A stretch of 64,000 bases of DNA from a candidate division WOR_3 bacterium SM23_42 (GCA_001303785.1 LJUJ01000004.1:64845-128844), one strand, 5' to 3'. Counted from the first letter of the stretch, positions 44,124 through 64,000 are shown. Notes: generated from the sequence alone by a model not told the origin. Translations and numbers: made by a program.

Positions 44124-44134
44124 TAAATTTCCCT

Positions 44135-45235: not shown

Positions 45236-47486
45236 CCGAATTGCCTTTTCGAATTTGCTATTTATCGCTTTGGTTCTTTTCTCAGGGATTTTTGCGGCTG
45301 AGGAGAGAGACTATGAACTTGCAATAGAGACATATCGGCGCGGCGATTATGTACTATCCAGCATGTATTTTGAGAACATTCTCGAGGATCAGGGATTACG
45401 CCAGCATTTTCCAGATGCGGTCTTTCACTTGACGAAAATACATGATGCCAGGGGCGATTTTGTCCATTTTGTTTCGTGGGCCACGAGATTCATGTCGGAT
45501 TATCCATATGATACGCGCGCAAAGGATATCCTTGCGTTGTTTTTGAAGAGGCTTACCGAAAAAAAATCGTATTTGATTGCCGCGAACTACGTAGAGGAAT
45601 TTGACTATTTAGTAATTGACTATTCAATCGTTGAACCGATTGGGCATGGTTTGATGGCGCAGGGGGAGATGGCGAAAGCTGACTATGTGTTTTCGCTCGG
45701 CCATCAAACAGACACAATCAAGATCCTGCGTGCAATGATGAAGAGCGATTACAGAGAGAGACAGAAGATATTCGAAACCCTTGAGGGTGCCTCGCGGAAC
45801 CTCTACGTGGTCGAGAATGATCTTCTGTTGGGCGATACGGTTAGCGCTTTTGTCAATTTCCAGAACTTATCGGAAAGAGATTTGGATGCTGGAGGATTAT
45901 ATCGATATGCTAAGCTAGCGTTGCTTTTTCGACCGGACGATGTTTCGCGTTATACTGAGGATTTGCGAGCCAAACGTGGATATGCCACGAAGGCAAAAAT
46001 CATTGATGCAATTGCTCGGCGTCGTCCCGAAGTGCAGCTAATACCCGAGGATGCTGAGGAGATTCGGCTCTATCAACAGCTATGCGGTTTGGATACTGTA
46101 TCGAAGGAACCACCTGAAGACATCGCGCTCGATTCATTGCTCGCCGAAGCGGAAGATACGTTGGCACTAATGGCGGGGTTGCGGCAGCGTTACAAGAACA
46201 ACTACCTGCTGGATTCCGTATATTGTCAGCAGTTGGTCAATCTTGGTAGTTACAATAAGGCGAGCGAGTCGATATCGTCGTACCTAAAGTATGCTAACAC
46301 GCAAGGCTATGTGCGGAAGATACTTGGGTTTGAGCGCTACGTGGATCGAGCTTACCATGATGTGGCAAAACATATGATACTTTCCAACCAGCGCAGTCCT
46401 AGCATATTGTATCTGCTCGCTGAATGTTTCAGGCAATTAGGGTACAACAGTGGAGATTTGTACACAAAGGTCATGGACCTGACCGCTGATTCATTGCTGT
46501 ATATGAAGGCACTGAATGGCTACGTGCTGGACCGATACGAGGCGGCGGCCTTTGATGAGATATGTTCGGTTGACGTTAGCGATCTGCAGGGTGATACCAG
46601 CACGATTCGTATGTATATACACAGCCTGGCCCGTTGTGGACAAAGAGAACGTGCCGATTCTCTTTTCCATCATTATTTTGACGAACCCGATTACATGTTG
46701 CTTAACCTTCATGGTGAACATTTAATAAACGAAAAAGAGTACGACAGGGCGAAGGTCTATTACGATTCGATGGTCCAGGAAATGGCCGACATCTTTGATG
46801 ATCAGATATATTATAATTGGGCGTTGATTTCGTTTCTGAATGGTAAGATGGACGAGGCGCATGAGAGATTTAGATTCTACATCGCGAATTTTCAGAGGTC
46901 GTTGCATTACCACGATGCACTATTCAAGATTGCCACGCTGAGCTACCTTGCTGAGAATTACGATTCTGCGGCCCATTATTATGGGTTAGCAAGTGAGAAG
47001 GAAACGCTCACATCGGATGCACTCGATAATCAGCTTATAAGTTATAAGAAAGCCGGCAATTGGCCAATGGTGATCGAAACCGGTAGAAAATTGCTGGGGA
47101 TTATCGACAAAGAAGGTGAAGCACGCGTTCGATTTGACATCGGATATGCCTTTTTGCGCGTCGGCAAAACCAAAGAAGCGGTCGAGAATCTGCTTGTTGC
47201 ATCACGCATGAAATCTGATCCAGGATACTACTACTGGTTGGGCGAGGCGTATTTAGGAAGGGGTGATTTCACACGTGCACTTTATAGCTATCAGAAAATA
47301 ATCGATTTGTATGCACGAGACGATATGTGGATGCCAACCGCACAATACAAGACGGGCATTGTGTTAGAACTCCTTGACGAAACCGGTGCCGCCCGAGACG
47401 TCTATCGTCAACTCATAAAGCAAAGAGGCATTAATGACCCGATTGCCATTGAAGCAAACATTCGATTGCAGCGCATCGAAGAGTGA
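45225..47486 (+). CDS. large TPR-like repeat protein with N-terminal signal/TM
   Basis: About 750 aa of helical-repeat sequence. N-terminus MLSSRIAFSNLLFIALVLFSGIFA. Start chosen at the ATG at 45225, overlapping the GT4 stop. Confidence 0.5.
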   Translation: MLSSRIAFSNLLFIALVLFSGIFAAEERDYELAIETYRRGDYVLSSMYFENILEDQGLRQHFPDAVFHLTKIHDARGDFVHFVSWATRFMSDYPYDTRAKDILALFLKRLTEKKSYLIAANYVEEFDYLVIDYSIVEPIGHGLMAQGEMAKADYVFSLGHQTDTIKILRAMMKSDYRERQKIFETLEGASRNLYVVENDLLLGDTVSAFVNFQNLSERDLDAGGLYRYAKLALLFRPDDVSRYTEDLRAKRGYATKAKIIDAIARRRPEVQLIPEDAEEIRLYQQLCGLDTVSKEPPEDIALDSLLAEAEDTLALMAGLRQRYKNNYLLDSVYCQQLVNLGSYNKASESISSYLKYANTQGYVRKILGFERYVDRAYHDVAKHMILSNQRSPSILYLLAECFRQLGYNSGDLYTKVMDLTADSLLYMKALNGYVLDRYEAAAFDEICSVDVSDLQGDTSTIRMYIHSLARCGQRERADSLFHHYFDEPDYMLLNLHGEHLINEKEYDRAKVYYDSMVQEMADIFDDQIYYNWALISFLNGKMDEAHERFRFYIANFQRSLHYHDALFKIATLSYLAENYDSAAHYYGLASEKETLTSDALDNQLISYKKAGNWPMVIETGRKLLGIIDKEGEARVRFDIGYAFLRVGKTKEAVENLLVASRMKSDPGYYYWLGEAYLGRGDFTRALYSYQKIIDLYARDDMWMPTAQYKTGIVLELLDETGAARDVYRQLIKQRGINDPIAIEANIRLQRIEE

Positions 47487-47502
47487 GGTGAGATTGTACG
47501 GT

Positions 47503-48015
47503 ATGAAAAGGGAGCGTGGTGTCATGCCATCTAGCACGCGTTGCTATGTTTTAATTGTCGTTGTAATGTCGTGTTTACTGATAATTGCCTGCTGCGGTTA
47601 TTCAACGCGTTCCCTTCTGCCTAGCCATATGCAGAGAATCCACATTGCACTTTTCGAGAATAGGACTCTGAAGGCTGGTCTTGATGAATTGGCCACTAAT
47701 ACCGTGATCGAGGCGTTTCGCAGTGGTTCGAATTTACGCATCGTTGATGAGGGCAGCGCCGATCTCCTGTTGGAGGGTAGTGTGTCAGGTTACTCAAAAG
47801 ATCCGCATACATATACGTCAAATCAAACCGTTCTCGAATACAAGATTACTGTCAGATATTCGGTGCGCTGTGTCGATAAGGTGCGCAATGAGGTATTTTG
47901 GGAAGGAGATGTATCGGACTGGGCGCTGTATGATATCGATGAGGACGAGGGTATAAGGAAGGCAGCCCAGAAGGCAGCAGACAGATTAGTGACCAACATT
48001 CTGACATACTGGTAA
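47503..48015 (+). CDS. putative lipoprotein (possibly LptE-like)
   Basis: Lipobox LLIIAC. Alternative start at 47434. Assignment is weak. Confidence 0.4.
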   Translation: MKRERGVMPSSTRCYVLIVVVMSCLLIIACCGYSTRSLLPSHMQRIHIALFENRTLKAGLDELATNTVIEAFRSGSNLRIVDEGSADLLLEGSVSGYSKDPHTYTSNQTVLEYKITVRYSVRCVDKVRNEVFWEGDVSDWALYDIDEDEGIRKAAQKAADRLVTNILTYW

Positions 48016-48885
48016 ATGCGTTTCACTGGTTTTGCTAGAATCAATCTACCTCCCCATGAGGAAAAGGCATTTGATGATTTCCTGCTGGGTTGTGCGGAAG
48101 CGGAGCAACTATCGAGCGGCGATTCGGGTGAAGAAAACCGCAGTGGTATTGGTGAGCTAGAAAGCAATGCTCATGATGCGTATTTCCGTGGATTTTACCT
48201 GGATGGTTTGAAATATTATGCCCGCTCTTTGGCCTCAAATAGAGAAAAAGTGACTGCGTGGGTTGGAGAGGTCAGAATCTTGGTTGACGTCGGAAGGTTT
48301 GATGCTGCCGTGTATTGGGCGAACCGGGGTCTTGAGTCGTTCGGCGAGTCAAGGTTACTGGCTTCTTCCAAGGCATTTGCCCTGGCGTATGCAGGAGATA
48401 CCGAAGCGGCCAAGAGACTAATCAATGTACCTGTAGAGAAAGATGAAACTCCCGTGCTTTGGTTGCTGCGTGGGGAAGTGTTCTTGAGAATAAGGATAAA
48501 CCTACTTCAGAAGCTATTTGCGCCGCATAAGGGCATAGGCAGTTTGGGTGCCTTCTTCTGTTTTCTCAAGGCTCTTAGCTCTGACCCAGGAGATCCGTTC
48601 ATGAACCAGCGCATCGGTCTTGCCTATCTGCTTGCAAATAAGACAAAGAGAGCATTTGAACACTTGAAAACATCTTTGAATGTAGTGCCTGACAACCCAC
48701 TCACCCTTTATGGCTTTGCTGAGTGTCATAGGGCACAGCGTGATTACGAGCGTGCTCTGTACTATGTGAAAAAAGCATTAGCTGGGAATCCGCATCTGGA
48801 CAGTGCCTTTGGGCTCTTACAGTGGTTACATGGTCCGATAAGGAAGATACTAGGTGGACTGCATAAGAAAATAAGAAAGGGATAA
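48016..48885 (+). CDS. TPR repeat protein
   Basis: 289 aa of TPR-like helices. Confidence 0.5.
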   Translation: MRFTGFARINLPPHEEKAFDDFLLGCAEAEQLSSGDSGEENRSGIGELESNAHDAYFRGFYLDGLKYYARSLASNREKVTAWVGEVRILVDVGRFDAAVYWANRGLESFGESRLLASSKAFALAYAGDTEAAKRLINVPVEKDETPVLWLLRGEVFLRIRINLLQKLFAPHKGIGSLGAFFCFLKALSSDPGDPFMNQRIGLAYLLANKTKRAFEHLKTSLNVVPDNPLTLYGFAECHRAQRDYERALYYVKKALAGNPHLDSAFGLLQWLHGPIRKILGGLHKKIRKG

Positions 48886-48887
48886 CA

Positions 48888-50858
48888 ATGAGAAGAAAAT
48901 ATGTCGGTATCGATGATTTGTATAAGATACAATTTTTGAGAGAAATCGCGCTGTCCCCTGATGGGGGAAAGGTTGCCTACACTGTAGAATGGATGGACAA
49001 GAAGAAGAACAAGTACTTTTCGAACCTTTACGTCGTTGCTGAGGATGGTAAGATTCGTCATTATATAAGGGGAAACAAAGATATAAAGAATCCGAAGTGG
49101 GCGCCTAATGGTAAATTAATATCATTCGTTTCAACCGAAAAGGAGAAGCAGAACCTGTGGGCCATCCCGGCAGATGGTGGCGAGGCCTACGTGGTCACTG
49201 ACGCCAAAGGATTTTTCGGCGACTATTCGTGGACTCCGGACAGCAAATACGTAGTATGTGAGTTCACCGAGAAGAAAGATGACAAGGAAAGAATCCCCGA
49301 GAAAGATAAGCCACCACTTTATCGCCACATAAAGAACATGTGGTACAAATTAGATGGCCGAGGTTTTCTCCCTGAGGAAAAGCAGCATATCTGGAAGGTC
49401 AATGTCCGTTCCGGTAAGATGACACAGCTGACCTTTGGCAAGAACGGCGACAACTCCCCAAGTGTATCTCCAGATGGCAAATTTGTGGTTTTTTCGTCGA
49501 ACCGAAGCGAGAATTTTGAGGAAAGGTTTACATATATCGATATCTACATTATCAACATCAAGAGTGGCAGGGAGAGAAAGATAAAGACCCCGGCTGGACC
49601 AAAGGGGTCACCGGCGTTTTCTCCAGACGGCAAGTACGTAGTATACTTAGGTAGGTTATATCCTGAACAATGGGTGGGGTGGCGCAACGTATACTTGTGG
49701 ATGGTACCATCTAGAGGCGGCAAGGTTATTAATATGACAAAATCTTTTGACCGAACCTTTGAAGCTTTGACAATCGATGACTTGGGACACTACGCGCGCA
49801 CTCGTCCGCTATTCTCTGCCGATGGTAAGCATATTTATAACATTACGGCAGATGGGGGAGACAAAAGTCTTTATCGGATTACCATCCAGAAGAGAAAGGT
49901 ATCTAAGGTCTTGGGCACAAATGAAAGGATATACGCATTTGATCATGATGGTAGGAATACTTTTGCGCTGGCCATTAGCAATGCTTTAGACCCTGGTAAT
50001 CTATTTTTATTCAAAGATGGGGTTCGTAAGCAACTCACCTATCTTAACAAGCATTACCTGAAGACATACCGTCTGGCTAGACCTGAGGAATTGAAGTGGA
50101 AGGGTTATGGACGCGATGAAATACAGGGTTGGTTGCTAAAGCCGCCCAACTTCAACCGTAGGAAGAAATATCCGTTGATCGTTCAAATTCATGGTGGACC
50201 ACATGCCGCCTATGGTAACTCTCTTTTTCATGAATTCCAGTTTCTTGCGGCGAATGGCTACTTGGTTTTCTATTCAAATCCGCATGGCAGCGATGGCTAC
50301 GGCGAGAAATTTGCCAGAGCATTGCACAACCAATGGGGTATCCCCGACACAAAAGACATCTTGAAAGGGATTTCATTGATCAGCAAACGCAGGTATGTAG
50401 ATAGAAAGAGAATGGGAGTGATGGGCGGTAGTTATGGCGGGTTCATGACCAATTGGATCATTGGGCATACGGATATCTTCAAGGTTGCCGTGACCATGCG
50501 TAGCGTCGTGAATATGTTGTCTTTCTTTTCATCAGATTTTGGCTTTGGGTTACCCAAGGAGTTTACAGGCAATTGGTGGGAAAAAAGGAATTTTGAATTC
50601 TACTGGAACATGTCGCCCTTGAAATACGTAAAACGAATAAAGACTCCGTTGTTGATTATCCACAGCGAGCAAGACCATCGTTGCCCTGTTGATCAGGCTG
50701 AGGAACTCTATGTTGCGCTCAAACTTTTGAAACGTGACGTAGAGATGGTGCGTTTTCCAGGCGAGCCTCACGGTTTGTCACGACACGGTTCACCGCGTCG
50801 ACGTGAGAAGAGGCTAGAATTCATATTAGATTTCGTGAACCGCTACTTGAAAAAATAG
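48888..50858 (+). CDS. S9 family serine peptidase (acylaminoacyl-peptidase / dipeptidyl-peptidase-like) with N-terminal beta-propeller
   Basis: GGSYGG nucleophile elbow. D and H of the triad in EQDHRCP and PGEPHGL. TolB-like propeller repeats N-terminally. Confidence 0.85.
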   Translation: MRRKYVGIDDLYKIQFLREIALSPDGGKVAYTVEWMDKKKNKYFSNLYVVAEDGKIRHYIRGNKDIKNPKWAPNGKLISFVSTEKEKQNLWAIPADGGEAYVVTDAKGFFGDYSWTPDSKYVVCEFTEKKDDKERIPEKDKPPLYRHIKNMWYKLDGRGFLPEEKQHIWKVNVRSGKMTQLTFGKNGDNSPSVSPDGKFVVFSSNRSENFEERFTYIDIYIINIKSGRERKIKTPAGPKGSPAFSPDGKYVVYLGRLYPEQWVGWRNVYLWMVPSRGGKVINMTKSFDRTFEALTIDDLGHYARTRPLFSADGKHIYNITADGGDKSLYRITIQKRKVSKVLGTNERIYAFDHDGRNTFALAISNALDPGNLFLFKDGVRKQLTYLNKHYLKTYRLARPEELKWKGYGRDEIQGWLLKPPNFNRRKKYPLIVQIHGGPHAAYGNSLFHEFQFLAANGYLVFYSNPHGSDGYGEKFARALHNQWGIPDTKDILKGISLISKRRYVDRKRMGVMGGSYGGFMTNWIIGHTDIFKVAVTMRSVVNMLSFFSSDFGFGLPKEFTGNWWEKRNFEFYWNMSPLKYVKRIKTPLLIIHSEQDHRCPVDQAEELYVALKLLKRDVEMVRFPGEPHGLSRHGSPRRREKRLEFILDFVNRYLKK

Positions 50859-50876
50859 GACTCAAGACCGGCAGCA

Positions 50877-51386
50877 ATGCAGTTGCTGATTATTCTGGGC
50901 ATTGTCTTCGTTGCTTATGTAGTATGGAGATACTGGGCGCTTACCATGGGTGCCGCTTATGATCCAGCACCGATGGATAAGGTCTATAAGATGCTTACGA
51001 TCGCCAACGTCGGAAGCAATGACATCGTTTACGATCTCGGTAGTGGCGATGGTCGTATCGTGATTACTGCGGCAAGGCAATTCGGCGCTCGTGCCGTGGG
51101 CATTGAAATCGATCCCCTTAGATTCTTGTTCGCGTGTTTCATGAAATCAATATCCGGACACTCGGGCAGGATACAGATCAAGTTTGGAAATATCTTCAAG
51201 AAGACCATTGCTGATGCGACGGTGGTGACGCTGTTTCTGTATGGGCCAACAAACAATCGTCTCAAGGAAAAATTCTCTCGTGAACTCAAACCAGGCACGC
51301 GTGTGGTATCGTACGTTTGGCGATTCGACGATTGGCAGTTGGTCGATTTTTTACCTGAAGATAGGATCTATCTGTACAAATTATGA
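50877..51386 (+). CDS. small membrane-anchored class I SAM-dependent methyltransferase
   Basis: N-terminal TM helix, then motif I VYDLGSGDGRIV. Confidence 0.6.
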   Translation: MQLLIILGIVFVAYVVWRYWALTMGAAYDPAPMDKVYKMLTIANVGSNDIVYDLGSGDGRIVITAARQFGARAVGIEIDPLRFLFACFMKSISGHSGRIQIKFGNIFKKTIADATVVTLFLYGPTNNRLKEKFSRELKPGTRVVSYVWRFDDWQLVDFLPEDRIYLYKL

Positions 51387-51438
51387 CAGTATCATGCTAC
51401 TTCATTGACTTTGTTTTGGAATACTCTATAATTCCACG

Positions 51439-53484
51439 ATGAAAGTCGACATCTCAGTGATTATCGTCAACTACAACGTGAAGGCGTTTCTCGAACAATG
51501 CCTCATCGCGATTGAACGCGCGCACAATGATATCAAGCTTGAGGTATTTGTGGTGGACAATGCGTCGGTCGATGGTAGCCAGGCGATGGTCAAGAAACGA
51601 TTTCCTTACGTTCACCTGATTGAAAACCACAAGAACGTTGGTTTCTCGACTGCCAATAATCAAGCAATAAAAATCGCGCGTGGACAGTACATATTCATAA
51701 TTAATCCTGACACGTTGATTCAGGAAGATACCCTTGTCACCCTGAAGAAATACCTTGATGCGAAACCTGAGGTTGGAGCTGTCGGCTGCAAACTTCTCAA
51801 TCCAGACGGGTCTTTTCAAATTTCGAGCCGGCGGAGCTTTCCAACACCTTGGGTGGCATTCTCGAGAATCACGGGATTGAGTAGAATTTTCCCGAGAAGC
51901 CGCCTCTTTGGACAATATAATGTTACATATCTCGACCCGGATGTAGAGGCCGAAGTAGATGTTTTGTCTGGCTCCCTTATGATGTTGAGGAAGAATGCAC
52001 TCGAGGAAGCTGGGTATTTTGATGAAGATTATTTCATGTACGGTGAAGATATTGATTTGTCTTACAAGATCAAGAAGGCGGGTTGGAAAATAATTTATAC
52101 CCCGTCGACTAAAGCAATACACTATAAAGGTGAAAGCACCAAGAAAAGTGATTTTTCGGCAATTGCGACATTCTATTCCACGATGCTCATCTTCATACGT
52201 AAGCATTTTGGCGGACGTTATTCGTTAATACTAAGGTTGTTGTTGACGCTTGGTATCTACACTCGGGCCACGATTGCGTTTTTGTGGCAGACAGCAAAGA
52301 ATCTGGCGCCTCCGATTATCGATTTTGGCTTTATATTGGCCAGTCTAGTAATTGCCATAAGGATTCGCTTTCCTCACTATCCGTTGGAGCGATTCCGGAT
52401 CATTTTGCCGATCTATGCGCTGGTATGGTTGATCAGCATATATCTATTTCGTGCTTACCACAGAAAGGAGAGATATCATCTCAAACCGGTTTTGTGGGGT
52501 TCGATATTTGGACTCTTGGTTAATTCGACGTTTACTTACTTCTTCAAACAGTTTGCGTATTCCCGTATTGTGGTTATGATATCATTTTTGCTCATCGTTT
52601 TTTTCACGGCAACGTGGCGACTCGTATATCGATTTACCGGTTATGGAACGGCCAAGGGACCTCTTTCCCGGTTGCGCCGCGTGATAATAATCGGTGCGGG
52701 CAGAGAGGGTAAGAGAATCTTGAGCAAGCTGCAGGCAAGGCCAGATATGCACTACGAGGTCTGCGGTTTCGTTGATTTTGAAACAAAGAGTATCGGTAGG
52801 GAAATCGACGGGACCGAAGTCTTGGCGACCATTGATAACATCAAGGATGTCATAAGAGTGGAGAAGGTTGACGACGTCATCTTCTCGTCGGATCGCTTGA
52901 CCAATGCTCAGATTCTCGAAACCATCATCCGTGCTCAGGGTAGTGGTGTTAATTTCCGCATTGTACCGCACGAAGTGGAATACATTGTTGCGAAGTCATC
53001 GGTCGACGACATTGATGCCGTGCCACTTCTGGATATAAATGGTTTTGCCGGCCCCATTGATTTGTTGGTCAAGCGTGTTTTTGATCTCATCGCCGCAACG
53101 TTGGTCATTGTTGTCAGTTCACCGTTGTTGCTCGCTAATTTCATTATCGGCGCGCGATTCAAGCAAAAGGAGATTCTTGGTGCCGGGGGTCAGCCGGTGA
53201 CAGTTTTTGTGTTTAACGGTGGTTTGGGATTCATGAAAAATATTCCGCTCTATCTTTCGGTCTTTGCGGGCACGTTAAGCATTGTTGGCTCAGAGATAAT
53301 CGTATTCAAGCCTGGTAAGTTCTACCCCACATACAAGCCGGGATTGACCGGCCTCGTGCAAGTGAAGGGGAACGAAAAAAGACAGCCGCTGACGCAACAA
53401 GAGAAAGATTACTACAACTTATACTACATAAAGAACCAGTCAATTATTACCGATCTACAGATTATCGCAAAATCAATTTTCTAA
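51439..53484 (+). CDS. fusion of GT2 glycosyltransferase (N-terminal) with a WbaP-type polyprenyl-phosphate sugar transferase domain (C-terminal)
   Basis: GT2: VIIVNYNV...DNASVDGS...DxD-like region. Middle: 4 TM helices plus Rossmann-like IIIGAGREGKR. C-terminus: KPGLTGLVQV, the signature of bacterial sugar transferases. The usual DELPQL / LVGPRP elements read KNIPLYL / IVGSEI. Confidence 0.75.
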   Translation: MKVDISVIIVNYNVKAFLEQCLIAIERAHNDIKLEVFVVDNASVDGSQAMVKKRFPYVHLIENHKNVGFSTANNQAIKIARGQYIFIINPDTLIQEDTLVTLKKYLDAKPEVGAVGCKLLNPDGSFQISSRRSFPTPWVAFSRITGLSRIFPRSRLFGQYNVTYLDPDVEAEVDVLSGSLMMLRKNALEEAGYFDEDYFMYGEDIDLSYKIKKAGWKIIYTPSTKAIHYKGESTKKSDFSAIATFYSTMLIFIRKHFGGRYSLILRLLLTLGIYTRATIAFLWQTAKNLAPPIIDFGFILASLVIAIRIRFPHYPLERFRIILPIYALVWLISIYLFRAYHRKERYHLKPVLWGSIFGLLVNSTFTYFFKQFAYSRIVVMISFLLIVFFTATWRLVYRFTGYGTAKGPLSRLRRVIIIGAGREGKRILSKLQARPDMHYEVCGFVDFETKSIGREIDGTEVLATIDNIKDVIRVEKVDDVIFSSDRLTNAQILETIIRAQGSGVNFRIVPHEVEYIVAKSSVDDIDAVPLLDINGFAGPIDLLVKRVFDLIAATLVIVVSSPLLLANFIIGARFKQKEILGAGGQPVTVFVFNGGLGFMKNIPLYLSVFAGTLSIVGSEIIVFKPGKFYPTYKPGLTGLVQVKGNEKRQPLTQQEKDYYNLYYIKNQSIITDLQIIAKSIF

Positions 53485-55600: not shown

Positions 55601-55628
55601 TTGACACCAGTATGTCACGGTATATAAT
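55601..55628 (+). promoter_or_regulatory. sigma-70 consensus promoter (TTGACA-N16-TATAAT) ending 5 nt before the ATG of the STAND regulator gene (leaderless candidate)
   Basis: TTGACA at 55601-55606, TATAAT at 55623-55628, ATG at 55634, no SD. Confidence 0.4.
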
Positions 55629-55633: not shown

Positions 55634-58600
55634 ATGGAAGGGAAACATTACGGTATAATATTGTTGAACAAACTCCAACCACCAGGAATAAAGACCAAGA
55701 CTTTGCGACGCAGGCGCTTGCTGAATGTTATTTCAAGAAACTTGGATAAGAAACTTGTTCTACTTTTTGCGGGAGCAGGATATGGGAAGACGACTCTTTT
55801 ATCTCATATGTTGTCTGAACAGAAGTTACGCTTTGTATACTATCATCTAGAGAAAACAGACGCCGAACCAGCCGTTTTCTTTTCTTATCTCATCAATGGA
55901 ATTCGCAGATTATTTCCGAATTTTGGCTACAAGTTTGAGGGTTTGCGGCATCTCTTCAATTATCCGGAGAAGTATTTGGGGATTATCGTGGGGACTTTCG
56001 TTAATGAAGCCTTGGAAACGGTGAAAGGTGATTTGTACCTAATTCTGGAAGACTATCACATACTGGCTCCGTCTGACTCGGTTGATAAGATACTAGATTA
56101 TCTTTTCGACCACATGCCTTCGAATTTGCATTTCATAATCACCTCACGATCAAAGCCTGCGATTTCCCTTTCGCAGATGACTGCCCGTGATGAATTATTC
56201 GAATTGGGCACTAATCAGCTGAGGTTCACAAAAGAAGAAATTCGGAGACTCTTCAAGAAAACATATTCGATTTCACTCAAGGGTAAGGATCTTGATTGGG
56301 TCGAGAGATATTCGGAGGGTTGGCCCGTGAGTTTGCGATTGATGTTGCAATCCACAAATTATCTTGAAGGCATTCGGTCTTCAGATCATGTAAGGAAAGT
56401 GATAGGTAATTATTTACAATCTCAAGCGAGTCTTTTCAACTACTTCGCTCAGGAAATTTACTTCCAGGAACCAACACGAATACGTGATTTCCTTTTGGAT
56501 TGTTCAGTATTTGAGTGGTTAAGTCCGAGTTTGTGTAATGCGGCCACCGGGCGCAGGAGTTCGGCCAGGTTGTTGTCAGATTTGACGAAACGAAATGCAT
56601 TTATTGTTGAAATACCGGAAAATGGTTACCGATTTCACCATCTTTTCAGAGATTTCTTGTTTAGCAAATTCACCGATGTAAGTAGACGAAGAAATGTCTA
56701 TTTTCGTGCCGCTAATCATTTATCTAAGAAGGGCAAATTAGAGGATGCCTTAGGTTTCTATTTACGATCTCGTAATTTCAGGAAGGGTATTTCAATCATC
56801 GTGAGAATTGGGCCAAGTCTGATTGGGCAGGGTCGAAGTAATGCATTATGTTCATATGTTGAACAGATACCGGTCTCCATGCGAGATAGACTGCCCGACC
56901 TACTGACGGTTTATGCTCAGGCATTGATTCAAGAAGGACGTCAGCCCGAGGCCAAGAAACATGCTCTACGGGCTGCCTATCTTCTAAAAGATAAGAAGAG
57001 CAAACGCCGGCCGTATGCCGAATCATTATATGGATTAGGCGGTATAAGTCTTAATCTGGGCAATTTCCAAGCAGCAAAGAAGTGGTATAACCGGGCGCTG
57101 AGAGCTTGTCCAAAGGGTTCGAGTCTTGCCCGGGCATCAATCATGAACTCACTGGGTTCTTTGTATAATGAGATGGGCAGCAAGTTTCTGCCTAAGGCAA
57201 TTGGCTATTTTGCCCAGGCATTAAGTGTGACCGAGCGACATGCTTACCGGGAGCTTGAAGCGAGCATCCTGAACAATTGGGCGATGAGCGAATGGAAAAT
57301 GGGAAACCTGAATGAGGCGTATGCAAAACTCGTTAAAATAACCGATATTCTGGAGAAACATTTTTCTCCGGGTTGCGGTGCAGGGTTTTTTAATGCGGCC
57401 AGGTTGAGTCTACTGTTGGGACGCAAGAAAGAAGCAAAGGAAATTCTCGATATTGGTATGAGGACATGTAGTACGTATAATGACCAATGGTCAATGGGTA
57501 GTCTATGGGCAGGGTACGCTTTGTTGTATCAAGAATTCGGTGATCTTAATAAAGCGCAGCAGTCAGGATCAAAATCCTTGGAGATAAGTAAGAAATTAGG
57601 TATCGATCGATTGGTCATTATTGCGCATACCGAACTCTGTAAAATAAATATCGCGAATCGGAACTTCGAAGAAGCCGAAAAAAATCTCTCATCAATCTGG
57701 TTGCTTAAGAAAGAGCATGACGATACCATATACATTCCTGTTCACTTCGTTGAAGGCAAGCTTAGGATTGCACAGGGAAGGTTGCAGCGAGCCGATGAGA
57801 TTCTTGATAAAACCTTGCATTTGGCGCAGAATTTCAATAGGGCATTCGATTTGTTTCAAATTAATATTGAGTTGAGTAGACTTTATCACTTACAGAAAAA
57901 TGATGTAGACAGTATAGTGGCTTTGAGACATGCTGTGGGAATTAGCCGGCTCAAGGGTTATGAATATTTGCTAGTTAAGGAATTAATGAGTGATAGCTGG
58001 ATGCTTAAGGCAACAAGGGAAAATGATATTGATAGGCAATATGTGATGAGTACCATCAAAAAATCAAAACTTGATGTTCACTGGGTGGATGCCTTACTGT
58101 TTGGTGTACCTAAGGTCATTGTCGATGGCCAAGAAATAGAAGATGGCAGTTGGAGGACGATGAAGGCAAAGAAGCTTTTCTGCTATCTTCTGTTACATCA
58201 CACCGAAAAAACAACTAGTGATACACTAATCGATACGCTGTGGCGTAATGTATCACATAGGAAGGGTTGCGATAGCTTACGTAAAGCAGTACAATACGTC
58301 AGGGAGACCATGAAGAAAGCTTCCGGCGCCGAAAACGTGTTATTGGTTTCAAAGGGTTCTTATCAGGTCTTTCCCAGTGTTTCTGTTTGGCTTGATGTGG
58401 AGACGTTTGAAGGTTTTCTGAAGCAGGCGAAAAGTACGCAGGATGACGATCACAAGATTACCTTGCTGCACAAAGCGATTAACCTGTACAAAAGAGGTTT
58501 TGCCTATGGATGGTATGATCATTGGGTGGAAGATATGCGTCTTTACTATCAAGCCCGTTATGAAGAATGCTTATCTTTGCTAGCCGATTTTCATTACAAA

Positions 58601-58840
58601 AAGGCTGATTACAGTGATTCCGTGACGATCTACAAGGAGCTGATATCGTTGAATTCTTATGACGAGAGGTACCACCGTGGAGTAATGGTATCGCTTGCCA
58701 AGTTGCAGAAGTATAAGGAAATCGAAGAGCAGTTCAAAAAACTCGAAGAGACTTTGGACAAAGAACTCAAGGCAAGGCCGCAGACCGCAACCATTGAGCT
58801 CTACAATTCACTACTTCGACCCATCAAGGGTCGGCGTTAA
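55634..58840 (+). CDS. STAND-type NTPase - TPR - C-terminal SARP (winged-helix + BTAD) transcriptional regulator
   Basis: 1068 aa. N-terminal P-loop LLFAGAGYGKTTLL (MalT-like). Long TPR-like region. C-terminal OmpR/PhoB-type wHTH followed by a BTAD (LDVETFEGFLKQA...YHRGVMVSLAKL). Confidence 0.7.
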   Translation: MEGKHYGIILLNKLQPPGIKTKTLRRRRLLNVISRNLDKKLVLLFAGAGYGKTTLLSHMLSEQKLRFVYYHLEKTDAEPAVFFSYLINGIRRLFPNFGYKFEGLRHLFNYPEKYLGIIVGTFVNEALETVKGDLYLILEDYHILAPSDSVDKILDYLFDHMPSNLHFIITSRSKPAISLSQMTARDELFELGTNQLRFTKEEIRRLFKKTYSISLKGKDLDWVERYSEGWPVSLRLMLQSTNYLEGIRSSDHVRKVIGNYLQSQASLFNYFAQEIYFQEPTRIRDFLLDCSVFEWLSPSLCNAATGRRSSARLLSDLTKRNAFIVEIPENGYRFHHLFRDFLFSKFTDVSRRRNVYFRAANHLSKKGKLEDALGFYLRSRNFRKGISIIVRIGPSLIGQGRSNALCSYVEQIPVSMRDRLPDLLTVYAQALIQEGRQPEAKKHALRAAYLLKDKKSKRRPYAESLYGLGGISLNLGNFQAAKKWYNRALRACPKGSSLARASIMNSLGSLYNEMGSKFLPKAIGYFAQALSVTERHAYRELEASILNNWAMSEWKMGNLNEAYAKLVKITDILEKHFSPGCGAGFFNAARLSLLLGRKKEAKEILDIGMRTCSTYNDQWSMGSLWAGYALLYQEFGDLNKAQQSGSKSLEISKKLGIDRLVIIAHTELCKINIANRNFEEAEKNLSSIWLLKKEHDDTIYIPVHFVEGKLRIAQGRLQRADEILDKTLHLAQNFNRAFDLFQINIELSRLYHLQKNDVDSIVALRHAVGISRLKGYEYLLVKELMSDSWMLKATRENDIDRQYVMSTIKKSKLDVHWVDALLFGVPKVIVDGQEIEDGSWRTMKAKKLFCYLLLHHTEKTTSDTLIDTLWRNVSHRKGCDSLRKAVQYVRETMKKASGAENVLLVSKGSYQVFPSVSVWLDVETFEGFLKQAKSTQDDDHKITLLHKAINLYKRGFAYGWYDHWVEDMRLYYQARYEECLSLLADFHYKKADYSDSVTIYKELISLNSYDERYHRGVMVSLAKLQKYKEIEEQFKKLEETLDKELKARPQTATIELYNSLLRPIKGRR

Positions 58841-59084
58841 CGTCTTACTTTTACAATCTTATCACAAGTTTTTCACAAGTAAATATTACAATATAATCAG
58901 ATAGATTCTGCGATACAGTTGGCAGGCTATCTTTGGTGGATGCACCGATGGAATATATGACCGCCAAGGAATCGGTGAAAGAAAAGGAAATTATCTTGTT
59001 CTTGAGGCACCTGAAAAATGTAGGAATATTCTTTGGCGGTCATATGTGAATGAGGGTTGTGCAAGTGTAAAAAAAAGAGGAGTC

Positions 59085-61937
59085 ATGAAACACTGGTCAT
59101 TATTGATCTTGGTGACCTGCCTTTGGGCACGACAAGCAACTAATCAGTGTTCGGGTCGCGAATTCCAAAATGCGCGGCACGACATCAACAATCTAACACT
59201 AGTAATCAGCAATTTTGGTACGTTCGGGCAGAGCGAAAGCGGTAACAGTGGAGGTCTTTGGTGGCAATTCAGTGGCTACGGACTGACAAACACATACATA
59301 TATGGTGCCGGCGTGTGGTTTGGTACAATTGATTCAACCGCTGATACGCTTGTGACCATCGGTTATGGTCCGAGTGGCGGGCAATTTGAGTTCAGTCCAG
59401 GCCTTGGTGGTTGGTCGGTAACCGACCCGGATGCGATTATCTATCTGTATCCGAACCCTTGGCCGCCGAATCAGGCTAGATTGCCAATGGCGCCGTTGGA
59501 GCCGATCTCCCGTCAGGATTCCTGGTGTGTCTATAATGACTGTGATTCTTTGTATCATATGGCTGAGGATACGCGACCGATTGGCATCGAAATATACCAG
59601 ACAGGGTACGCTTGGGATTTTCCTGTGCTGGAGGACGCTGTTTTTCTTGTTTTTCAAGTGAAGAATGTTTCAGGAAATAACCTTTACGATTGCTATTTTA
59701 GCATCGGTATGGATAGCGACATTGGAAATGAGGCAGGATATTTTGCAAATGATTTGTGTGATTATATACTCGATCAAACCTACGTTATCGCAGGAGATAC
59801 AATTCACGTTGATGACCTTGTTTATCAGTGGCAGCAAGTACCTGAAGGAGGCTGGCCGGAATTCCCTGGAGTGATAGGATTTGACTTGGTACAGACACCG
59901 TTTGATTTAGAGTGGGGCCAGGATAAAGATGGGGATGAGATTCCCGACCAACGTGAACGTGACAGTGTGTACTACCGGCACAGCGTGCCACAAAATCAAT
60001 GGGACGTTGACCATGATGGCGTACCGGATTGGCGTGATGCTTCAGAAAATCCACAACTTGGCTTGACATCCTTTAAGCTGTTCACTTTGGATCTTGAGCC
60101 GAGCCGCGATAATCAACGTTATATGACAATGGCTGGCCACAACTTTGTAACCGGCCAGTATGAGCCGTTTGATTCTGCATTGACAAATCCTGGAGATCGG
60201 AGATTTCTTATGTCCAGTGGTCCATTCGACCTCGGACCAGATTCAACAGCCACGTTAGTACTTGGCATTATGTTGGCCGAATGGTTTGGTGTATACCAAA
60301 CACCCGATACTGCAATTGCGATAATCGATTACTACTGTCAGCTTACGGCGGATATGAACTGGCTACTGCCCGGACCACCGCCTGCGCCGAGTTTGACGTG
60401 TGTGCCGGGTGATGCGCGAATCACACTTATTTGGCAGAGTGCCCCCGAGACCACGCCAGACCCTTTCTTTGACATAGTTGGTGATTCCGGTTCAACCTAC
60501 TTTGATCCGTTTTATCGCCAGTATGACTTTGAAGGCTATGGGGTATGGAAGAGTCTGGATGGTGAGACTTATGAGCTTTTGACACGTTATGATTTGCATA
60601 ACGATATCATGTTCGAAGACACGGCAACGGATATCTATGCTACCAATTCTGGATTGAGACACTATTTTATCGACGAGGATGTGCGTAACGGTTTTACTTA
60701 TCACTATGCGCTGACTTCGTATGACTGTAACTATCATGCCGGTCAAGATAGTCTGGGCAATCAGTATGTGGTGCCTTTTTGGCTTGAGAGTGAAAAGGTG
60801 AGCGTTTCAGCAATCGCGCGGCGTGACCCAGCGAATTATCAGCCTGGATGTTATCACGTTGAGGCGGTGTATGGTAATCCGGTGTTGGCTGACTCTGGTG
60901 TGGATTTGGTAATCACTCATCCGTTGCAGATGACTGAAGATCCGTATTATCTTGTTTTTGGTCCCATCGAGTATGCAAATAGTGAAGCGTGTTACACTGC
61001 ATCATTATTAGATCATCTCGGTGATTTGATTGATAGTGTGCGTGTCGTGTTCTTGAGGGGGGAGCGGATTTTTCGAGATTTTGGCACGCGTAATGGGTTG
61101 AATATTAGTGTCTTATTGTGGCGTGAGGATATTCCGACCGGTGTTTCGATCTTCGAGGATGTGATGGTTGAGTCGGGGACTTATCCAGAGAGTCTATTAG
61201 TCCCGTCGTCGGGTGGGACGAACTGGGCCTATCGTGGTAATGATTTTCGGGTTTACTGGCGTGCGCTGAATGCGGGTGGTCCGGTGAATACGGTAACGGT
61301 GGTTGATGTGTACAGTGGGGATACGATTCCGTTCAAGCCGGGTACGACTGATACTCTGGCTGATGGTTGGTGTTTCGAATCAGTATCACAGACCACGGAC
61401 ACTTTGGTTTACAGTAATTGGGTGGCCATAGCGACACGTTACATGTATATCTGCGGTGGTAAGTTCCGGTTGAAACCGGCCGGTGGTTTAGTGCCTGGTG
61501 ACCCCGTGCCTTCGGAGAATGATGTGTGGTTGGTACGGGCATGTGCCGATTACTTGCCGGCGCCGGCAAATACGCGTTTAAAGATAACGCCGACACCGGC
61601 CCAGCTCACGACCGGTGAAGTCAGTCTGAATGTCAAGGTTTGTCCGAATCCATATGTTGTTACTAATGAGTGGCAGCGACATATGTTTAAGCGGAGATTG
61701 AGGTTCATCAACCTGCCGTCGCAGTGCACCATACGGGTCTTTAATATCAATGGTGAGCTCGTGAAATTGATTGAGCATCATCATACTTCTGAGGGTGGGC
61801 TGGAGGGCGATCTTGGTGGTGATGAGTGGTGGGATGGATTGAATTTGTTTCGTCAACTTGTGGCGAGCGGTGTTTATGTCTTCCATGTGCAGTCAGAAGT
61901 AGGTGAACAGGTCGGCAAATTCGTTGTGGTGCACTAA
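59085..61937 (+). CDS. large secreted T9SS cargo protein with thrombospondin-type-3-like Ca-binding repeats, paralog 1
   Basis: Signal peptide MKHWSLLILVTCLWA. Conserved N-terminal module shared with the two downstream genes. DKDGDEIPD / DVDHDGVPDWRD (DxDxDGxxDxxD). C-terminal T9SS CTD (VYVFHVQSEVGEQVGKFVVVH). The track start at 59046 is a GTG. Confidence 0.65.
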   Translation: MKHWSLLILVTCLWARQATNQCSGREFQNARHDINNLTLVISNFGTFGQSESGNSGGLWWQFSGYGLTNTYIYGAGVWFGTIDSTADTLVTIGYGPSGGQFEFSPGLGGWSVTDPDAIIYLYPNPWPPNQARLPMAPLEPISRQDSWCVYNDCDSLYHMAEDTRPIGIEIYQTGYAWDFPVLEDAVFLVFQVKNVSGNNLYDCYFSIGMDSDIGNEAGYFANDLCDYILDQTYVIAGDTIHVDDLVYQWQQVPEGGWPEFPGVIGFDLVQTPFDLEWGQDKDGDEIPDQRERDSVYYRHSVPQNQWDVDHDGVPDWRDASENPQLGLTSFKLFTLDLEPSRDNQRYMTMAGHNFVTGQYEPFDSALTNPGDRRFLMSSGPFDLGPDSTATLVLGIMLAEWFGVYQTPDTAIAIIDYYCQLTADMNWLLPGPPPAPSLTCVPGDARITLIWQSAPETTPDPFFDIVGDSGSTYFDPFYRQYDFEGYGVWKSLDGETYELLTRYDLHNDIMFEDTATDIYATNSGLRHYFIDEDVRNGFTYHYALTSYDCNYHAGQDSLGNQYVVPFWLESEKVSVSAIARRDPANYQPGCYHVEAVYGNPVLADSGVDLVITHPLQMTEDPYYLVFGPIEYANSEACYTASLLDHLGDLIDSVRVVFLRGERIFRDFGTRNGLNISVLLWREDIPTGVSIFEDVMVESGTYPESLLVPSSGGTNWAYRGNDFRVYWRALNAGGPVNTVTVVDVYSGDTIPFKPGTTDTLADGWCFESVSQTTDTLVYSNWVAIATRYMYICGGKFRLKPAGGLVPGDPVPSENDVWLVRACADYLPAPANTRLKITPTPAQLTTGEVSLNVKVCPNPYVVTNEWQRHMFKRRLRFINLPSQCTIRVFNINGELVKLIEHHHTSEGGLEGDLGGDEWWDGLNLFRQLVASGVYVFHVQSEVGEQVGKFVVVH

Positions 61938-61989
61938 GAACATCACTTATTATATGATGTGAATGCAGCTGTGCGTGCTCTTTGATGCC

Positions 61990-62017
61990 TTGACAGATTT
62001 GCGACCGCTATTATAAT
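61990..62017 (+). promoter_or_regulatory. sigma-70 consensus promoter (TTGACA-N16-TATAAT) of paralog 2
   Basis: TTGACA at 61990-61995, TATAAT at 62012-62017. GGGGG SD at 62032-36, ATG at 62041. Confidence 0.4.
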
Positions 62018-62040
62018 GAAGTATGTAGATAGGGGGAAAT

Positions 62041-63627
62041 ATGAGAAAATATGTCATAGTAATGTGTGCAATAGGGTGCCTTTTGGCAAACACAAGGTAC
62101 CCTAACTCAAACCTTCGCGAATTCCAACAAGCTCGGCATGATACCAACAATATTCAAATGGTTATTAGTAATTTCGGCACATTCGGTCAAGATGAATCGG
62201 GGAATTTGGGCGGTTGCTGGTGGTTGCCAACGGGTTGGGGTGCTTTAAATTATTATATATACGGTGCCGGTATATGGTTTGGTACGATCGATTCGCTGAC
62301 TGGCGACACACTGGTCACGATCGGCTATGGACCTAGTGGCGGACAATTCGAATTTGCGCCTGGTCTTTCAGGCTGGCCAGTTGATCATCCCGCAGCCGTA
62401 ATTTATATGTATCCAGACAACTGGCCGCCGCCAGCGGACACTCTTCCCATGGCGCCTCAGGATACGATTTCCTATCAGGATTCCTGGTGTTGTTACAACG
62501 ACAGCGACATTCAATATCATATGATTGGTGATACACGACCGATTGGTATTGAGGTGTATCAGACTGGATACGCCTGGTCTTATCCCTTCGCTGACGATAT
62601 TATCTATCTGACGTGTGATGTGAAGAACGTGTCTGGCCATAATCTGACGGACTGCTATTTTGGAGTATGTACTGACTGCGATGTCGGTAATGAAGCGGGT
62701 ACAAACGCAAACGATATGTACACAGGGATTGTTGAACGAACGTATTTAATCAATAATGATACGATCAACGTAGACGACGTGGGTTATCAGTGGCAGGAGG
62801 AGCCAGAATACGGCTGGCCTGATTTTCCTGGCGTCATAGGTTTCGACCTGTTGCAGACCCCCTTCGATTTAGTATCAGGACAGGATAAAGATGGTGATGG
62901 AATACTAGATCAATATGAGAGAGACAGCGCGTATTATGTCACCCACTTTCCACCCTCGATGTGGGATGTTGATTTGGATGGTGTTCCTGATTGGCGGGAT
63001 CCATCGCAATGGCCACAGTATGGAATGTCTGCGCTAAAGAGGTTTACTCTTGATCTCGAGCCCACTATTGATGCCGACCGTTATGCGACCTTAGCTGGTT
63101 ATAACTTTGTGACTGGCCAGTATGAACCTTACGACACAGTCATTCCTGACCCGAATGACCAGAGGTTCTTGATGTCGAGTGGACCTTTTGATCTTGCCCC
63201 TGATTCTGTTGCGACTCTCGTATTTGCCATTATGATCGCAGCTTGGCATGACATTTACGAAACTCCGGATACTGCCGTGGTTCTAGTCGATCAGCGGGTC
63301 CAGCTGCATTATGATTTGTACTGGTTTACATATACAGGGATAGAAAAGAATTACGAATTGCGGATTTCGAATTGCGAAATGAAGATAACGCCGAATCCTG
63401 TTACGTACAATGAAAATGTTCGCTTCTCATTGGATCAGCCAAGCTATATTACCTTGAAATTATACAATATATTGGGTCAGTTCGTTACGACGCTATTTGA
63501 GGGGCTAACATCTGTTGGTGAACATGAACTTCGTCTTGATGTGTCGAACCTTGCCCATGGTACCTATTTCTTAGTGCTCGAGACACCAGAGCAGAGTACA
63601 TCGCAGTCGTTTGTTGTGGTGCGTTAG
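62041..63627 (+). CDS. secreted T9SS cargo protein, paralog 2 (N-terminal module + TSP3-like repeats + CTD)
   Basis: Residue-by-residue similarity to 59085..61937 over the first ~430 aa (REFQQARHDTNNIQMVISNFGTFGQ..., GAGIWFGTID, TIGYGPSGGQFEF, DKDGDGILD, DVDLDGVPDWRD). T9SS CTD (TYFLVLETPEQSTSQSFVVVR). Confidence 0.65.
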   Translation: MRKYVIVMCAIGCLLANTRYPNSNLREFQQARHDTNNIQMVISNFGTFGQDESGNLGGCWWLPTGWGALNYYIYGAGIWFGTIDSLTGDTLVTIGYGPSGGQFEFAPGLSGWPVDHPAAVIYMYPDNWPPPADTLPMAPQDTISYQDSWCCYNDSDIQYHMIGDTRPIGIEVYQTGYAWSYPFADDIIYLTCDVKNVSGHNLTDCYFGVCTDCDVGNEAGTNANDMYTGIVERTYLINNDTINVDDVGYQWQEEPEYGWPDFPGVIGFDLLQTPFDLVSGQDKDGDGILDQYERDSAYYVTHFPPSMWDVDLDGVPDWRDPSQWPQYGMSALKRFTLDLEPTIDADRYATLAGYNFVTGQYEPYDTVIPDPNDQRFLMSSGPFDLAPDSVATLVFAIMIAAWHDIYETPDTAVVLVDQRVQLHYDLYWFTYTGIEKNYELRISNCEMKITPNPVTYNENVRFSLDQPSYITLKLYNILGQFVTTLFEGLTSVGEHELRLDVSNLAHGTYFLVLETPEQSTSQSFVVVR

Positions 63628-63711
63628 CTTGATCGATAGCTTTACTTCTCATAACATCTCAACGACACCGCTGCACCGACTGTTATTATGAAGTACGCAA
63701 CGTGAGGAGAT

Positions 63712-64000
63712 ATGAGAAGATATATTGTTGCCCTGTGTTTAGTGTGTTGCCTTTTAGCAAGGACAAAATTCAATAACCCTGCTTTTCGTGAATTCCAGAA
63801 CGCCAGGCACGATACCAATAATATTCAGATGGTAATTAGCAATTATGGCACCTTCGGTCAAAGTGAGTCCGGTTATTCTGGCGGCTGCTGGTGGGCACCT
63901 TCGGGCTGGGATTACTTCAATTTTTACATCTATGGCGCCGGTATCTGGTTTGGGGCTATCAGTTCGCTGACCTACGACACATTAGTCACGGTCGGCTATG
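63712..64000 (+). CDS. secreted T9SS-cargo-family protein, paralog 3 (3' end runs off the window)
   Basis: MRRYIVALCLVCCLLA signal, then the same REFQNARHDTNNIQMVISNYGTFGQ...GAGIWFG module. GAGGAG SD. Confidence 0.55.
   Translation, partial: MRRYIVALCLVCCLLARTKFNNPAFREFQNARHDTNNIQMVISNYGTFGQSESGYSGGCWWAPSGWDYFNFYIYGAGIWFGAISSLTYDTLVTVGY

Follow-up and report, generated by a model that had tools for sequence, protein, structure and literature searches.

A predicted regulator-controlled array of secreted proteins of the type IX secretion type in candidate division WOR-3

A 64,000-nucleotide (nt) stretch of the genome of candidate division WOR_3 bacterium SM23_42, referred to here in its full length as the window, ends on its + strand in a tandem array of three paralogous genes for putative secreted proteins, which we call p1, p2, and p3 in + strand order (paralogs 1, 2, and 3). 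We propose from sequence, at about even confidence, that this array is one end of a conserved WOR-3 locus in which a ligand-sensing activator lies beside the secreted-protein genes that it controls, and in which the body of the encoded proteins binds a glycan or another polymer. That the proteins are regulator-controlled, secreted cargo of the type IX secretion system (T9SS) type is the firmer part of this proposal, and we consider it probable; binding of a polymer or glycan by the body, which draws on structure models, is put forward tentatively and below even confidence. The original prediction for this region had described the paralogs and missed the adjacent regulator, of a MalT-SARP type, the conserved operator, and the conserved leader hairpin.

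The long-form gene p1 occupies positions 59085 to 61937 (+ strand; 950 amino acids, aa) and begins at an ATG behind a GAGGAG ribosome-binding site, while its mechanically called open reading frame (ORF) opens earlier, at the GTG at 59046. It is followed on the same strand by the short-form gene p2 (62041 to 63627, 528 aa) and by p3, which starts at 63712 and is cut by the window edge (>64000), with its N-terminal 96 aa inside the window. In agreement with the prediction of tandem paralogs of a secreted family, the three copies have in common a module of about 430 aa, hereafter the N-module, at 62 to 69% identity: identity is 62% between p1 and p2 (427 aa aligned) and 66 to 69% between p3 and either of them. 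The motifs REFQxARHDxNN, ISNFGTFGQ, GAG[IV]WFG, TIGYGPSGGQFEF, and YQTGYAW were all located where they had been placed, and these three were the only family copies found when each protein was searched against the whole window by tblastn. In p1, a putative signal peptide is followed by the N-module (aa ~25 to 428, 59157 to 60368), an extension (aa ~430 to 850, 60372 to 61631), and a C-terminal domain (CTD; aa ~850 to 950, 61632 to 61934). What had been described as an extra insertion of about 430 aa in p1 is really a C-terminal extension of about 420 aa between module and CTD. The short form p2 consists of a putative signal peptide, the N-module (aa ~26 to 430), a linker, and a T9SS type A CTD (aa 449 to 526, 63385 to 63618). 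The N termini of p1, p2, and p3 (MKHWSLLILVTCLWARQA, MRKYVIVMCAIGCLLANT, and MRRYIVALCLVCCLLART) appear signal-peptide-like, each opening with basic residues that are followed by a hydrophobic stretch and a site of small residues, and these features are kept in 34 homologs.

Upstream of the array, a gene at 55634 to 58840 (+ strand) encodes a protein of 1068 aa composed of a P-loop STAND ATPase of the MalT type, a WHD, a TPR sensor, and a C-terminal OmpR-type winged helix with a BTAD domain (SARP). Residues 9 to 347 match Escherichia coli MalT (PDB 8bob) at 9e-42 in a profile search of the PDB, and the NCBIfam MalT model (NF003420) matches residues 12 to 775 at 7e-67, with 226 bits relative to an equivalog cutoff of 537. 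TPR_MalT was detected at 1.3e-19 (71 bits, cutoff 45), and WHD_MalT is on record for orthologs of the regulator. At the other end of the protein, BTAD was found at 1.4e-9 (38.9 bits, cutoff 22.1), and residues 846 to 1054 align to the SARP domain of AfsR (8k60, AfsR residues 50 to 255) with an E value of 1.3e-6; a LuxR/GerE helix-turn-helix gave no match in the regulator. Judged by these similarities, the protein is a MalT-type STAND sensor whose usual LuxR output has been swapped for a C-terminal SARP domain. Like E. coli MalT, it has an N-terminal P-loop NOD, WHD_MalT, and a TPR_MalT sensor, and would be a positive regulator adjoining its targets; unlike MalT, it carries a SARP domain in place of the LuxR-type helix-turn-helix. 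With the large SARPs (AfsR; SARP-LAL proteins such as PimR), it shares the combination of winged helix and BTAD with a STAND ATPase and a TPR sensor, but the order is reversed relative to AfsR-type proteins, with the MalT-type ATPase N-terminal and the SARP domain C-terminal (residues ~840 to 1061), and the host is not an actinobacterium. Regulator homologs adjoin family genes in loci L004, L005, L020, L032, L033, L045, L077, L079, L083, L092, L095, L097, L101, and L102, and the regulator was adjacent in four of the five homolog contexts that extend far enough upstream to tell. A reading of the regulator as an anti-phage defence STAND protein was rejected, since PADLOC gave only weak TPR hits and the protein carries a DNA-binding SARP domain; PADLOC defence models were likewise not matched by p1 or p2.

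A predicted operator together with the p1 promoter lies at 58862 to 58892 (+ strand). The sequence TCACAAGTTTTTCACAAG begins 22 nt past the regulator stop and contains two TCACAAG repeats, at 58862 and 58873 (11 bp apart), followed after 10 nt by TACAAT at 58887 to 58892; TATAAT at 58892 to 58897 is an alternative -10 of p1. The pattern TCAC-N7-TCAC-N10-TAnnnT occurs once in the window, where 0.01 matches are expected. All related loci that were examined carry such a box before the first of the family genes adjoining the regulator, with the consensus TTTTTCACAAn in two or three copies 11 bp apart and a fixed 10 nt from the last TCAC to the -10, and it also precedes several family genes without a nearby regulator. 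A census of 92 non-redundant loci (1.2 Mb, both strands) returned 26 boxes compared to about 2 in shuffled sequence, and all but one of the 26 lay on the coding strand within 420 nt upstream of an N-module gene, a BNR/Asp-box T9SS cargo gene, or a regulator. Sorted by target, 19 boxes belonged to N-module genes, 5 to BNR/Asp-box T9SS cargo genes, and 2 to the regulator itself; the script had labelled four of the five BNR/Asp-box cases, and the fifth (L080, labelled "other") was assigned from the family of its cargo. Three of three loci fetched independently, via short-form homologs, also carried the box, one of them at a family gene that stands alone, with no regulator inside 8 kb.

Known SARP sites are direct repeats spaced by 11 or 22 bp, in which 8 bp separate the 3' repeat from the -10; the box of AfsR covers -40 to -19 (PMC10936776). 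The geometry of the box fits this rule, the heptamer TCACAAN leaving 7 nt to the -10. As for the large SARPs, the direct repeats of the predicted operator thus cover the -35 region with an 11-bp phasing, and the last one stands about 7 to 8 bp from the -10, whereas the repeat is TTCACA instead of TCGAG-like and the targets are secreted-protein genes instead of antibiotic clusters. From adjacency, enrichment, and geometry, we infer that the regulator binds the TCAC repeats. The TCACA repeats were also considered as plain -35 elements, and this was rejected because their distances to the -10 are 9 and 20 nt instead of 16 to 18.

Three further loci showed particular features around the regulator or the box. 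L102 encodes a shorter regulator homolog (2025 to 4949; 974 aa) for which no BTAD hit is recorded, and the box is still found 3' of its stop codon. In L101, the box is separated from the first intact family gene by an untranslated remnant (7500 to 7900) that reads as the N-terminal ~70 aa of the N-module (FQIVRLDTNQIEISISNFGKYGQ...GAGIWFGTID), so it represents a decayed array member. In L103, the spacer ahead of the solitary boxed short-form gene (7598 to 7930) is full of short tandem repeats, with CAAGTTCCAAGAGA-like and CTCTGCGGT-like units.

The cargo beside the regulator turned out to be interchangeable. In a regulator-centred metagenome scan of 25 loci, the adjacent cargo belonged to the N-module family in 10, while in L080, L085, L089, and L091 it was a different protein of 560 to 593 aa with Asp-box motifs and sub-threshold BNR hits. 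This protein is complete in three of the four loci, and all three complete versions carry an above-threshold T9SS CTD. In L085 (10364 to 13782) and L091 (10300 to 15813), these genes stand in tandem, two or three of them, before the tyrosyl-tRNA synthetase gene, that is, in the same slot as the array of the window; in L080 the cargo gene lies at 10308 to 11993. Since the same regulator and box precede either N-module cargo or, in other WOR-3 lineages, BNR cargo, the conserved unit consists of regulator, box, and secreted cargo. Either cargo type has a fold typical of glycan-active proteins, which fits a regulon of extracellular, glycan-related proteins.

The array itself continues beyond the window edge, a point that the original prediction had left to be checked. 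The protein p1 is identical in sequence to P0270 on JGI contig SMTZ1_10000006 (129,965 bp, sample 3300002052). The source contig stops 1.1 kb past the window, within p3 at residue 382, and a second assembly is broken at the same point inside p3, whose C terminus is absent from both the window and the source contig. Another contig of the same sample, SMTZ1_10003178 (L001), starts (1 to 687) inside the C-terminal part of a second long form that is 76% identical to the p1 extension and continues with a short paralog (P0001, 71% identical to p2), a tyrosyl-tRNA synthetase gene, radical-SAM genes, and a NiFe hydrogenase; sequence comparison found no overlap joining the two contigs. A related WOR-3 contig (L005/L006) is syntenic with the window across this whole region and contains, in order, a glycosyltransferase, PriA, the regulator, a long form, three short forms, tyrosyl-tRNA synthetase, the same radical-SAM genes, and the hydrogenase. 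The array probably comprises at least four genes.

Between the box and the long-form gene, we found a leader of about 170 nt in six distinct loci (the window, L005, L020, L032, L045, and L078). In the window, it forms a hairpin at 58950 to 59057 (+ strand), with a long stem in which 58955 to 58972 pairs with 59028 to 59045 around the invariant GTTCTTGAG, and this is the sole strong inverted repeat near the promoters (I2). Alignment and RNAalifold identified compensatory changes in 9 of the 33 predicted pairs among five sequences, the folding z-score of the leader is -5.6, and a U-run follows the stem on its 3' side in four of the six loci, the window not being among them. A covariance model found the leader in 1 Mb of related loci at these six only, always between box and long-form gene, the search having added one sequence, and Rfam 15 gave no match at E<=1 across 58700 to 64000. 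The leader may be an attenuator or a regulatory RNA, for which six sequences give modest evidence. A 37-aa ORF called by JGI at 58936 to 59049, overlapping the leader, is probably not a gene and was rejected, since the frame in which the conserved nucleotides are read differs between the window and L005.

The p2 gene is preceded by a perfect sigma-70-type promoter, TTGACA-N16-TATAAT, at 61990 to 62017 (+ strand; 12/12 consensus), as had been predicted. A promoter-like site ahead of p3 (63662 to 63689, + strand; ACGACA-N16-TATTAT with an upstream TG) matches at 9/12 and is weaker than that of p2. The upstream box said to be common to both genes, TTATWATGAAGTA, occurs exactly twice in the window (62011 and 63683; 0.17 expected), and at both genes it consists of the promoter's -10 hexamer and the 7 nt that come after it. 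The claim that the paralogs are individually promoted holds in part: p2 has a convincing promoter, but this is not a conserved trait, the short genes of the syntenic L005 lying 19 to 23 nt apart, and the p1 promoter is of an activator-dependent type. In L001, the long-to-short spacer is homologous to the p1-p2 spacer of the window, and the hexamers are degraded there (TTGGCA...TGTAGT). A 17-nt inverted repeat, 82% complementary, flanks the p3 promoter (63645 to 63661 and 63703 to 63719), and its downstream arm overlaps the ribosome-binding site and the ATG of p3; in a read-through transcript from p2, this repeat could hide the p3 translation start. The regulator gene has a perfect sigma-70-type promoter of its own (TTGACA-N16-TATAAT at 55601 to 55628, + strand), whose -10 ends 5 nt before the ATG at 55634. 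A divergent second 12/12 sigma-70 promoter lies between PriA and the regulator at 55503 to 55466 (- strand), with the PriA GTG at 55468. As both -10s end 5 to 6 nt ahead of the annotated starts, the regulator and PriA mRNAs may lack leaders; alternatively, the start of PriA may be wrongly annotated.

The assignment of the cargo to type IX export is based on the CTD. That of p2 passes the curated cutoffs of two models (PF18962, 37.1 bits for a cutoff of 27; TIGR04183, 38.3 bits for a cutoff of 23), and in the structure model it superposes on solved T9SS CTDs, for example that of mirolase at a template modelling score (TM) of 0.66. The CTD of p1 remains below cutoff (TIGR04183, 12.8 bits, E 0.087), but it aligns to the family CTD (hhalign probability 90%, E 1.4e-6), which identifies it as a divergent homolog; 21 of 37 long forms have a weak PF18962 match. 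The statement that each paralog carries a Por-type CTD is therefore borne out above thresholds for p2, by homology for p1, and not for p3, the C terminus of which is out of reach. Like T9SS type A cargo of Bacteroidota (gingipains, RemA/SprB-type adhesins, secreted glycanases), the proteins have a signal-peptide-like start, a body, and a beta-sandwich sorting domain of about 80 aa, and occur as multiple paralogs per genome. They differ from it in their host, the candidate phylum WOR-3, in a body that forms an unannotated family, and in the long-form CTD, a divergent subtype that is nearer in NCBIfam to PorZ/PorU tails, at weak E values.

The C-terminal beta-sandwich might instead be a FlgD-Ig or CTD-like domain serving some other anchoring or export in WOR-3, so that the proteins would not be T9SS substrates. 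Besides the sub-threshold CTD of p1, this would agree with the presence of similar CTD-like tails in Gemmatimonadota, Ignavibacteriota, and other phyla, and with the fact that no T9SS core machinery (PorV, SprA, PorU, GldK-N) was found among the scanned ORFs of the 64-kb window, to which the search was limited. We nevertheless regard it as very unlikely, given that p2 satisfies both curated models, that the NCBI annotation of WOR-3 homologs names a T9SS type A sorting domain, and that the modelled CTD superposes on solved ones. In the literature, we found no paper on WOR-3 with T9SS.

The family is large. Protein searches returned 291 hits for p2, nearly all of about 525 aa, and 1051 for p1, mostly of about 1000 aa, and a HMMER scan of 1.84 billion cluster representatives recovered 277 clusters (50% identity) at E<=1e-30, with both long and short architectures. 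Those members for which the source gives an organism come from candidate division WOR-3, Stahlbacteria, or TA06. When GTDB species genomes were scanned, about 45 long-form loci turned up in WOR-3/TA06/Stahlbacteria metagenome-assembled genomes (MAGs), at least 5 of them on chromosome CP070834. The sources list homologs under two names only, "hypothetical protein" and "T9SS type A sorting domain-containing protein". As predicted, the module could not be assigned to a known family: the body of about 400 aa had no Pfam, NCBIfam, or PDB sequence match, whether searched with single sequences, with a profile, or with 37 members one by one, so that it does not correspond to a well-characterised domain; the p1 extension gave none in the same scans. 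In distant family members, Pfam recognizes accessory domains only (cohesin/dockerin, FG-GAP/UnbV_ASPIC, LVIVD), the cohesin/dockerin and FG-GAP modules being fused to these proteins. The FN3-like extension and the CTD, which make up the C-terminal half of long forms (p1 aa ~410 to 950), were also found without the N-module in several other phyla, the matches L060 to L074 coming from MAGs of Gemmatimonadota, Ignavibacteriota, Glassbacteria, Rubrivirga, and Eisenbacteria. On this distribution, extension plus CTD is a separate and more widespread module than the N-module.

Each complete protein contains two loops of the pattern D-x-D-x-D-x-x-x-D-x-x-[DE], at positions that are invariant in family alignments: DKDGDEIPDQRE and DVDHDGVPDWRD in p1 (59922 to 59957 and 60003 to 60038, + strand) and DKDGDGILDQYE and DVDLDGVPDWRD in p2 (62884 to 62919 and 62965 to 63000, + strand). 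The first loop of p1 has E at the canonical G position, and those of p3, which sit past the window, are present in the source contig, the first of them without the glycine. The family consensus of the two loops is DKDxDGIxDxxExDS and WDxDxDGxPDWRDxS. The description of these loops as TSP3-like applies at the level of the motif (DxDxDGxxDxx[DE]); there is no repeat array but two isolated loops, and TSP_3 (PF02412) had no match at E<=1 in p1, p2, or 37 long forms. Indeed, the spacing D-x-D-x-D-G-x-x-D-x-x-[DE], invariant in the family, is that of thrombospondin type 3, dockerin, and FG-GAP loops, but the TSP3 flanking cysteines are missing and there is no dockerin hidden Markov model (HMM) hit. 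We read the two loops, from the models, as probably calcium-binding and inserted in the body described below.

Two AlphaFold2 models built from separate alignments were compared to the PDB with Foldseek. The p2 model has a pLDDT of 71 and a pTM of 0.63, and the p1 model has a pLDDT of 82.7, with about 90 in the N-module; both are nearly all-beta. In both, the N-module matched N-terminal beta-supersandwich domains of more than 20 structures with a probability of 1.0 and E values of 1e-6 to 1e-4. The matched proteins include GH94 enzymes (cellobiose, chitobiose, cellodextrin, and laminaribiose phosphorylases), GH116 glucosidases, GH65 maltose phosphorylase, dextran dextrinase, and a polysaccharide lyase, and the periplasmic P1 domain of YidC matched at TM 0.49, normalised on the 278-aa target. 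The p1 extension gave FN3-like structural matches. The N-module is thus predicted to be a beta-supersandwich, the same galactose-mutarotase-like fold, in two independent models, as the N-terminal domains of GH94/GH65/GH116/GH15-type enzymes and YidC P1, and the earlier suggestion of a polymer-binding family fits this fold. Unlike in those enzymes, the module carries an inserted subdomain with the two DxDxDG loops and stands alone as a secreted body with no attached (alpha/alpha)6 catalytic domain. Membership in GH94 or GH65 is not indicated, as there is no (alpha/alpha)6 barrel in the predicted secondary structure and no HMM hit, and the supersandwich part alone matches.

The same fold raises the question of whether the N-module is an enzyme, glycan-active and mutarotase-like or another hydrolase on a supersandwich, with the array representing substrate-induced isoenzymes. 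Galactose mutarotase illustrates that a supersandwich can be catalytic. The alignments contain invariant H33, N36, E104, D147-S148-W149-C150, N153-D154, H160, Q174, Y177, W179, and N196, and D212 and D214 are likewise among the invariant polar residues, an unusually dense set from H33 to D214; the family is moreover under strong purifying selection, and a MalT-like sensor upstream is typical of catabolic regulons. Against these points, no HMM or sequence tie to any enzyme family was found, the structural matches are non-catalytic N-terminal domains lacking the (alpha/alpha)6 barrel, and some of the invariant acidic residues may just bind structural calcium. An enzyme therefore appears distinctly unlikely to us, and we keep to a binding body as the preferred, if tentative, reading.

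Several observations weigh against the reading of a regulator-controlled array of polymer-binding secreted proteins. The fold match is partial (TM 0.2 to 0.33 on the query, root mean square deviation 8 to 20 Å, 6 to 12% identity, with no detectable sequence similarity), and at such identities and low global TM it is a statement at the level of the fold only. The matched domains are accessory parts of enzymes and thus say little about the ligand, and the invariant polar residues H33, N36, E104, D147, S148, C150, H160, Q174, and Y177 could mark an active site, not a binding site. On the side of regulation, the box is present at just 19 of 70 family gene starts, the winged helix of the regulator (Trans_reg_C) was weakly detected (E 0.041), the C-terminal placement of the SARP domain is, to our knowledge, unlike that of every characterised SARP, and the perfect consensus promoter suggests that p2 is expressed without the regulator. 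Finally, the window-limited search for the T9SS core machinery, mentioned above, was negative.

The paralogs are not near-identical recent duplicates. Their amino acid identity is 62 to 69%, and synonymous sites are saturated (proportion of synonymous differences, pS, 0.79 to 0.84; of nonsynonymous differences, pN, 0.18 to 0.27), indicating old duplicates under purifying selection; because of this saturation, the ratio of nonsynonymous to synonymous rates is not estimable. Tandem diversification for surface variation, with the paralogs as variable adhesins or coat proteins, had been the initial interpretation. It would account for tandem paralogs that carry a surface-secretion signal, for separate p2 and p3 promoters that could permit differential expression, and for a long-form extension with FN3-like matches, as in many adhesins. 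Furthermore, N-modules group by array and not by position: in a rough neighbour-joining tree with L005, L020, and L032, the N-module of p1 is nearer to the short forms of its own array (62 to 64%) than to long forms elsewhere (about 56%), and the same is seen in L005. This hints at gene conversion or repeated domain shuffling within arrays. However, pN is far below pS, and the variable positions are spread along the module without hypervariable stretches. We found no suitable inverted repeats around the promoters for invertons, no long near-identical DNA tracts for recombination, and no homopolymer switches. The array layout and synteny are conserved across genomes, and a dedicated sensor-type regulator points to an induced function, not to stochastic variation. 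Surface variation thus seems unlikely.

Under the proposal of a regulated array, the system could work as follows. A small-molecule signal together with ATP would cause the regulator to oligomerise, and its SARP domains would dock next to one another on the direct repeats (about -42 to -21) and bring RNA polymerase to a promoter lacking a -35. Transcription of p1 would then pass through the structured leader, with possible attenuation, and p2 (consensus) and p3 (extended -10-like) would contribute their own promoters in this genome. The proteins would cross the inner membrane via Sec, fold with calcium, and be exported by the type IX route for display or release. Outside the cell, the supersandwich body would most likely bind a glycan or another polymer.

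Farther upstream in the window (39466 to 53484), we noted a pair of M42 aminopeptidases, an M23 peptidase, two sugar-nucleotide dehydratase/epimerase genes, a GT4 glycosyltransferase, TPR proteins, an S9 (Dpp5-like) peptidase, and a GT2 and Bac_transf fusion. These are envelope-polysaccharide and peptide-degradation functions, and no T9SS component was seen among them.

The candidate phylum WOR-3 was first described from the sulfate-methane transition zone of White Oak River sediments, and a lifestyle of polymer degradation and fermentation was predicted for the WOR-3 bins recovered there (PMC4411801). The name of the source contig and the WOR-3 labels of homologs link the array to these same sediments. 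The components described here are of known kinds: T9SS-type cargo, STAND/SARP regulators, direct-repeat operators, and the supersandwich fold. For the body as a family, the reversed MalT-SARP architecture, the operator, and their pairing with T9SS-type cargo arrays in WOR-3, we found no description in the libraries or the literature. It is conceivable, though we hold it with some doubt, that the locus belongs to a regulon spanning WOR-3/TA06/Stahlbacteria, in which a MalT-SARP regulator reads a TTCACA direct-repeat operator and switches on interchangeable type IX-secreted cassettes, one of them a new calcium-binding supersandwich family with a new polymer-binding or catalytic activity, and to which a new leader RNA was added in one sub-clade. 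Should this hold, it would give these uncultured sediment bacteria their first defined transcriptional circuit and surface-protein system. The locus would also offer an instance of SARP-type promoter activation outside Actinobacteria with the domain order reversed. The predicted circuit of regulator, operator, and targets is defined by sequence; it is testable in vitro without culture and could be used to find co-regulated genes in metagenomes. WOR-3 and related lineages are uncultured, widespread in sediments, and believed to degrade polymers. A large, conserved, and unannotated secreted family is a good candidate for their interface at the cell surface, and the ligand of its module, if found, would name several hundred "hypothetical" proteins at once.

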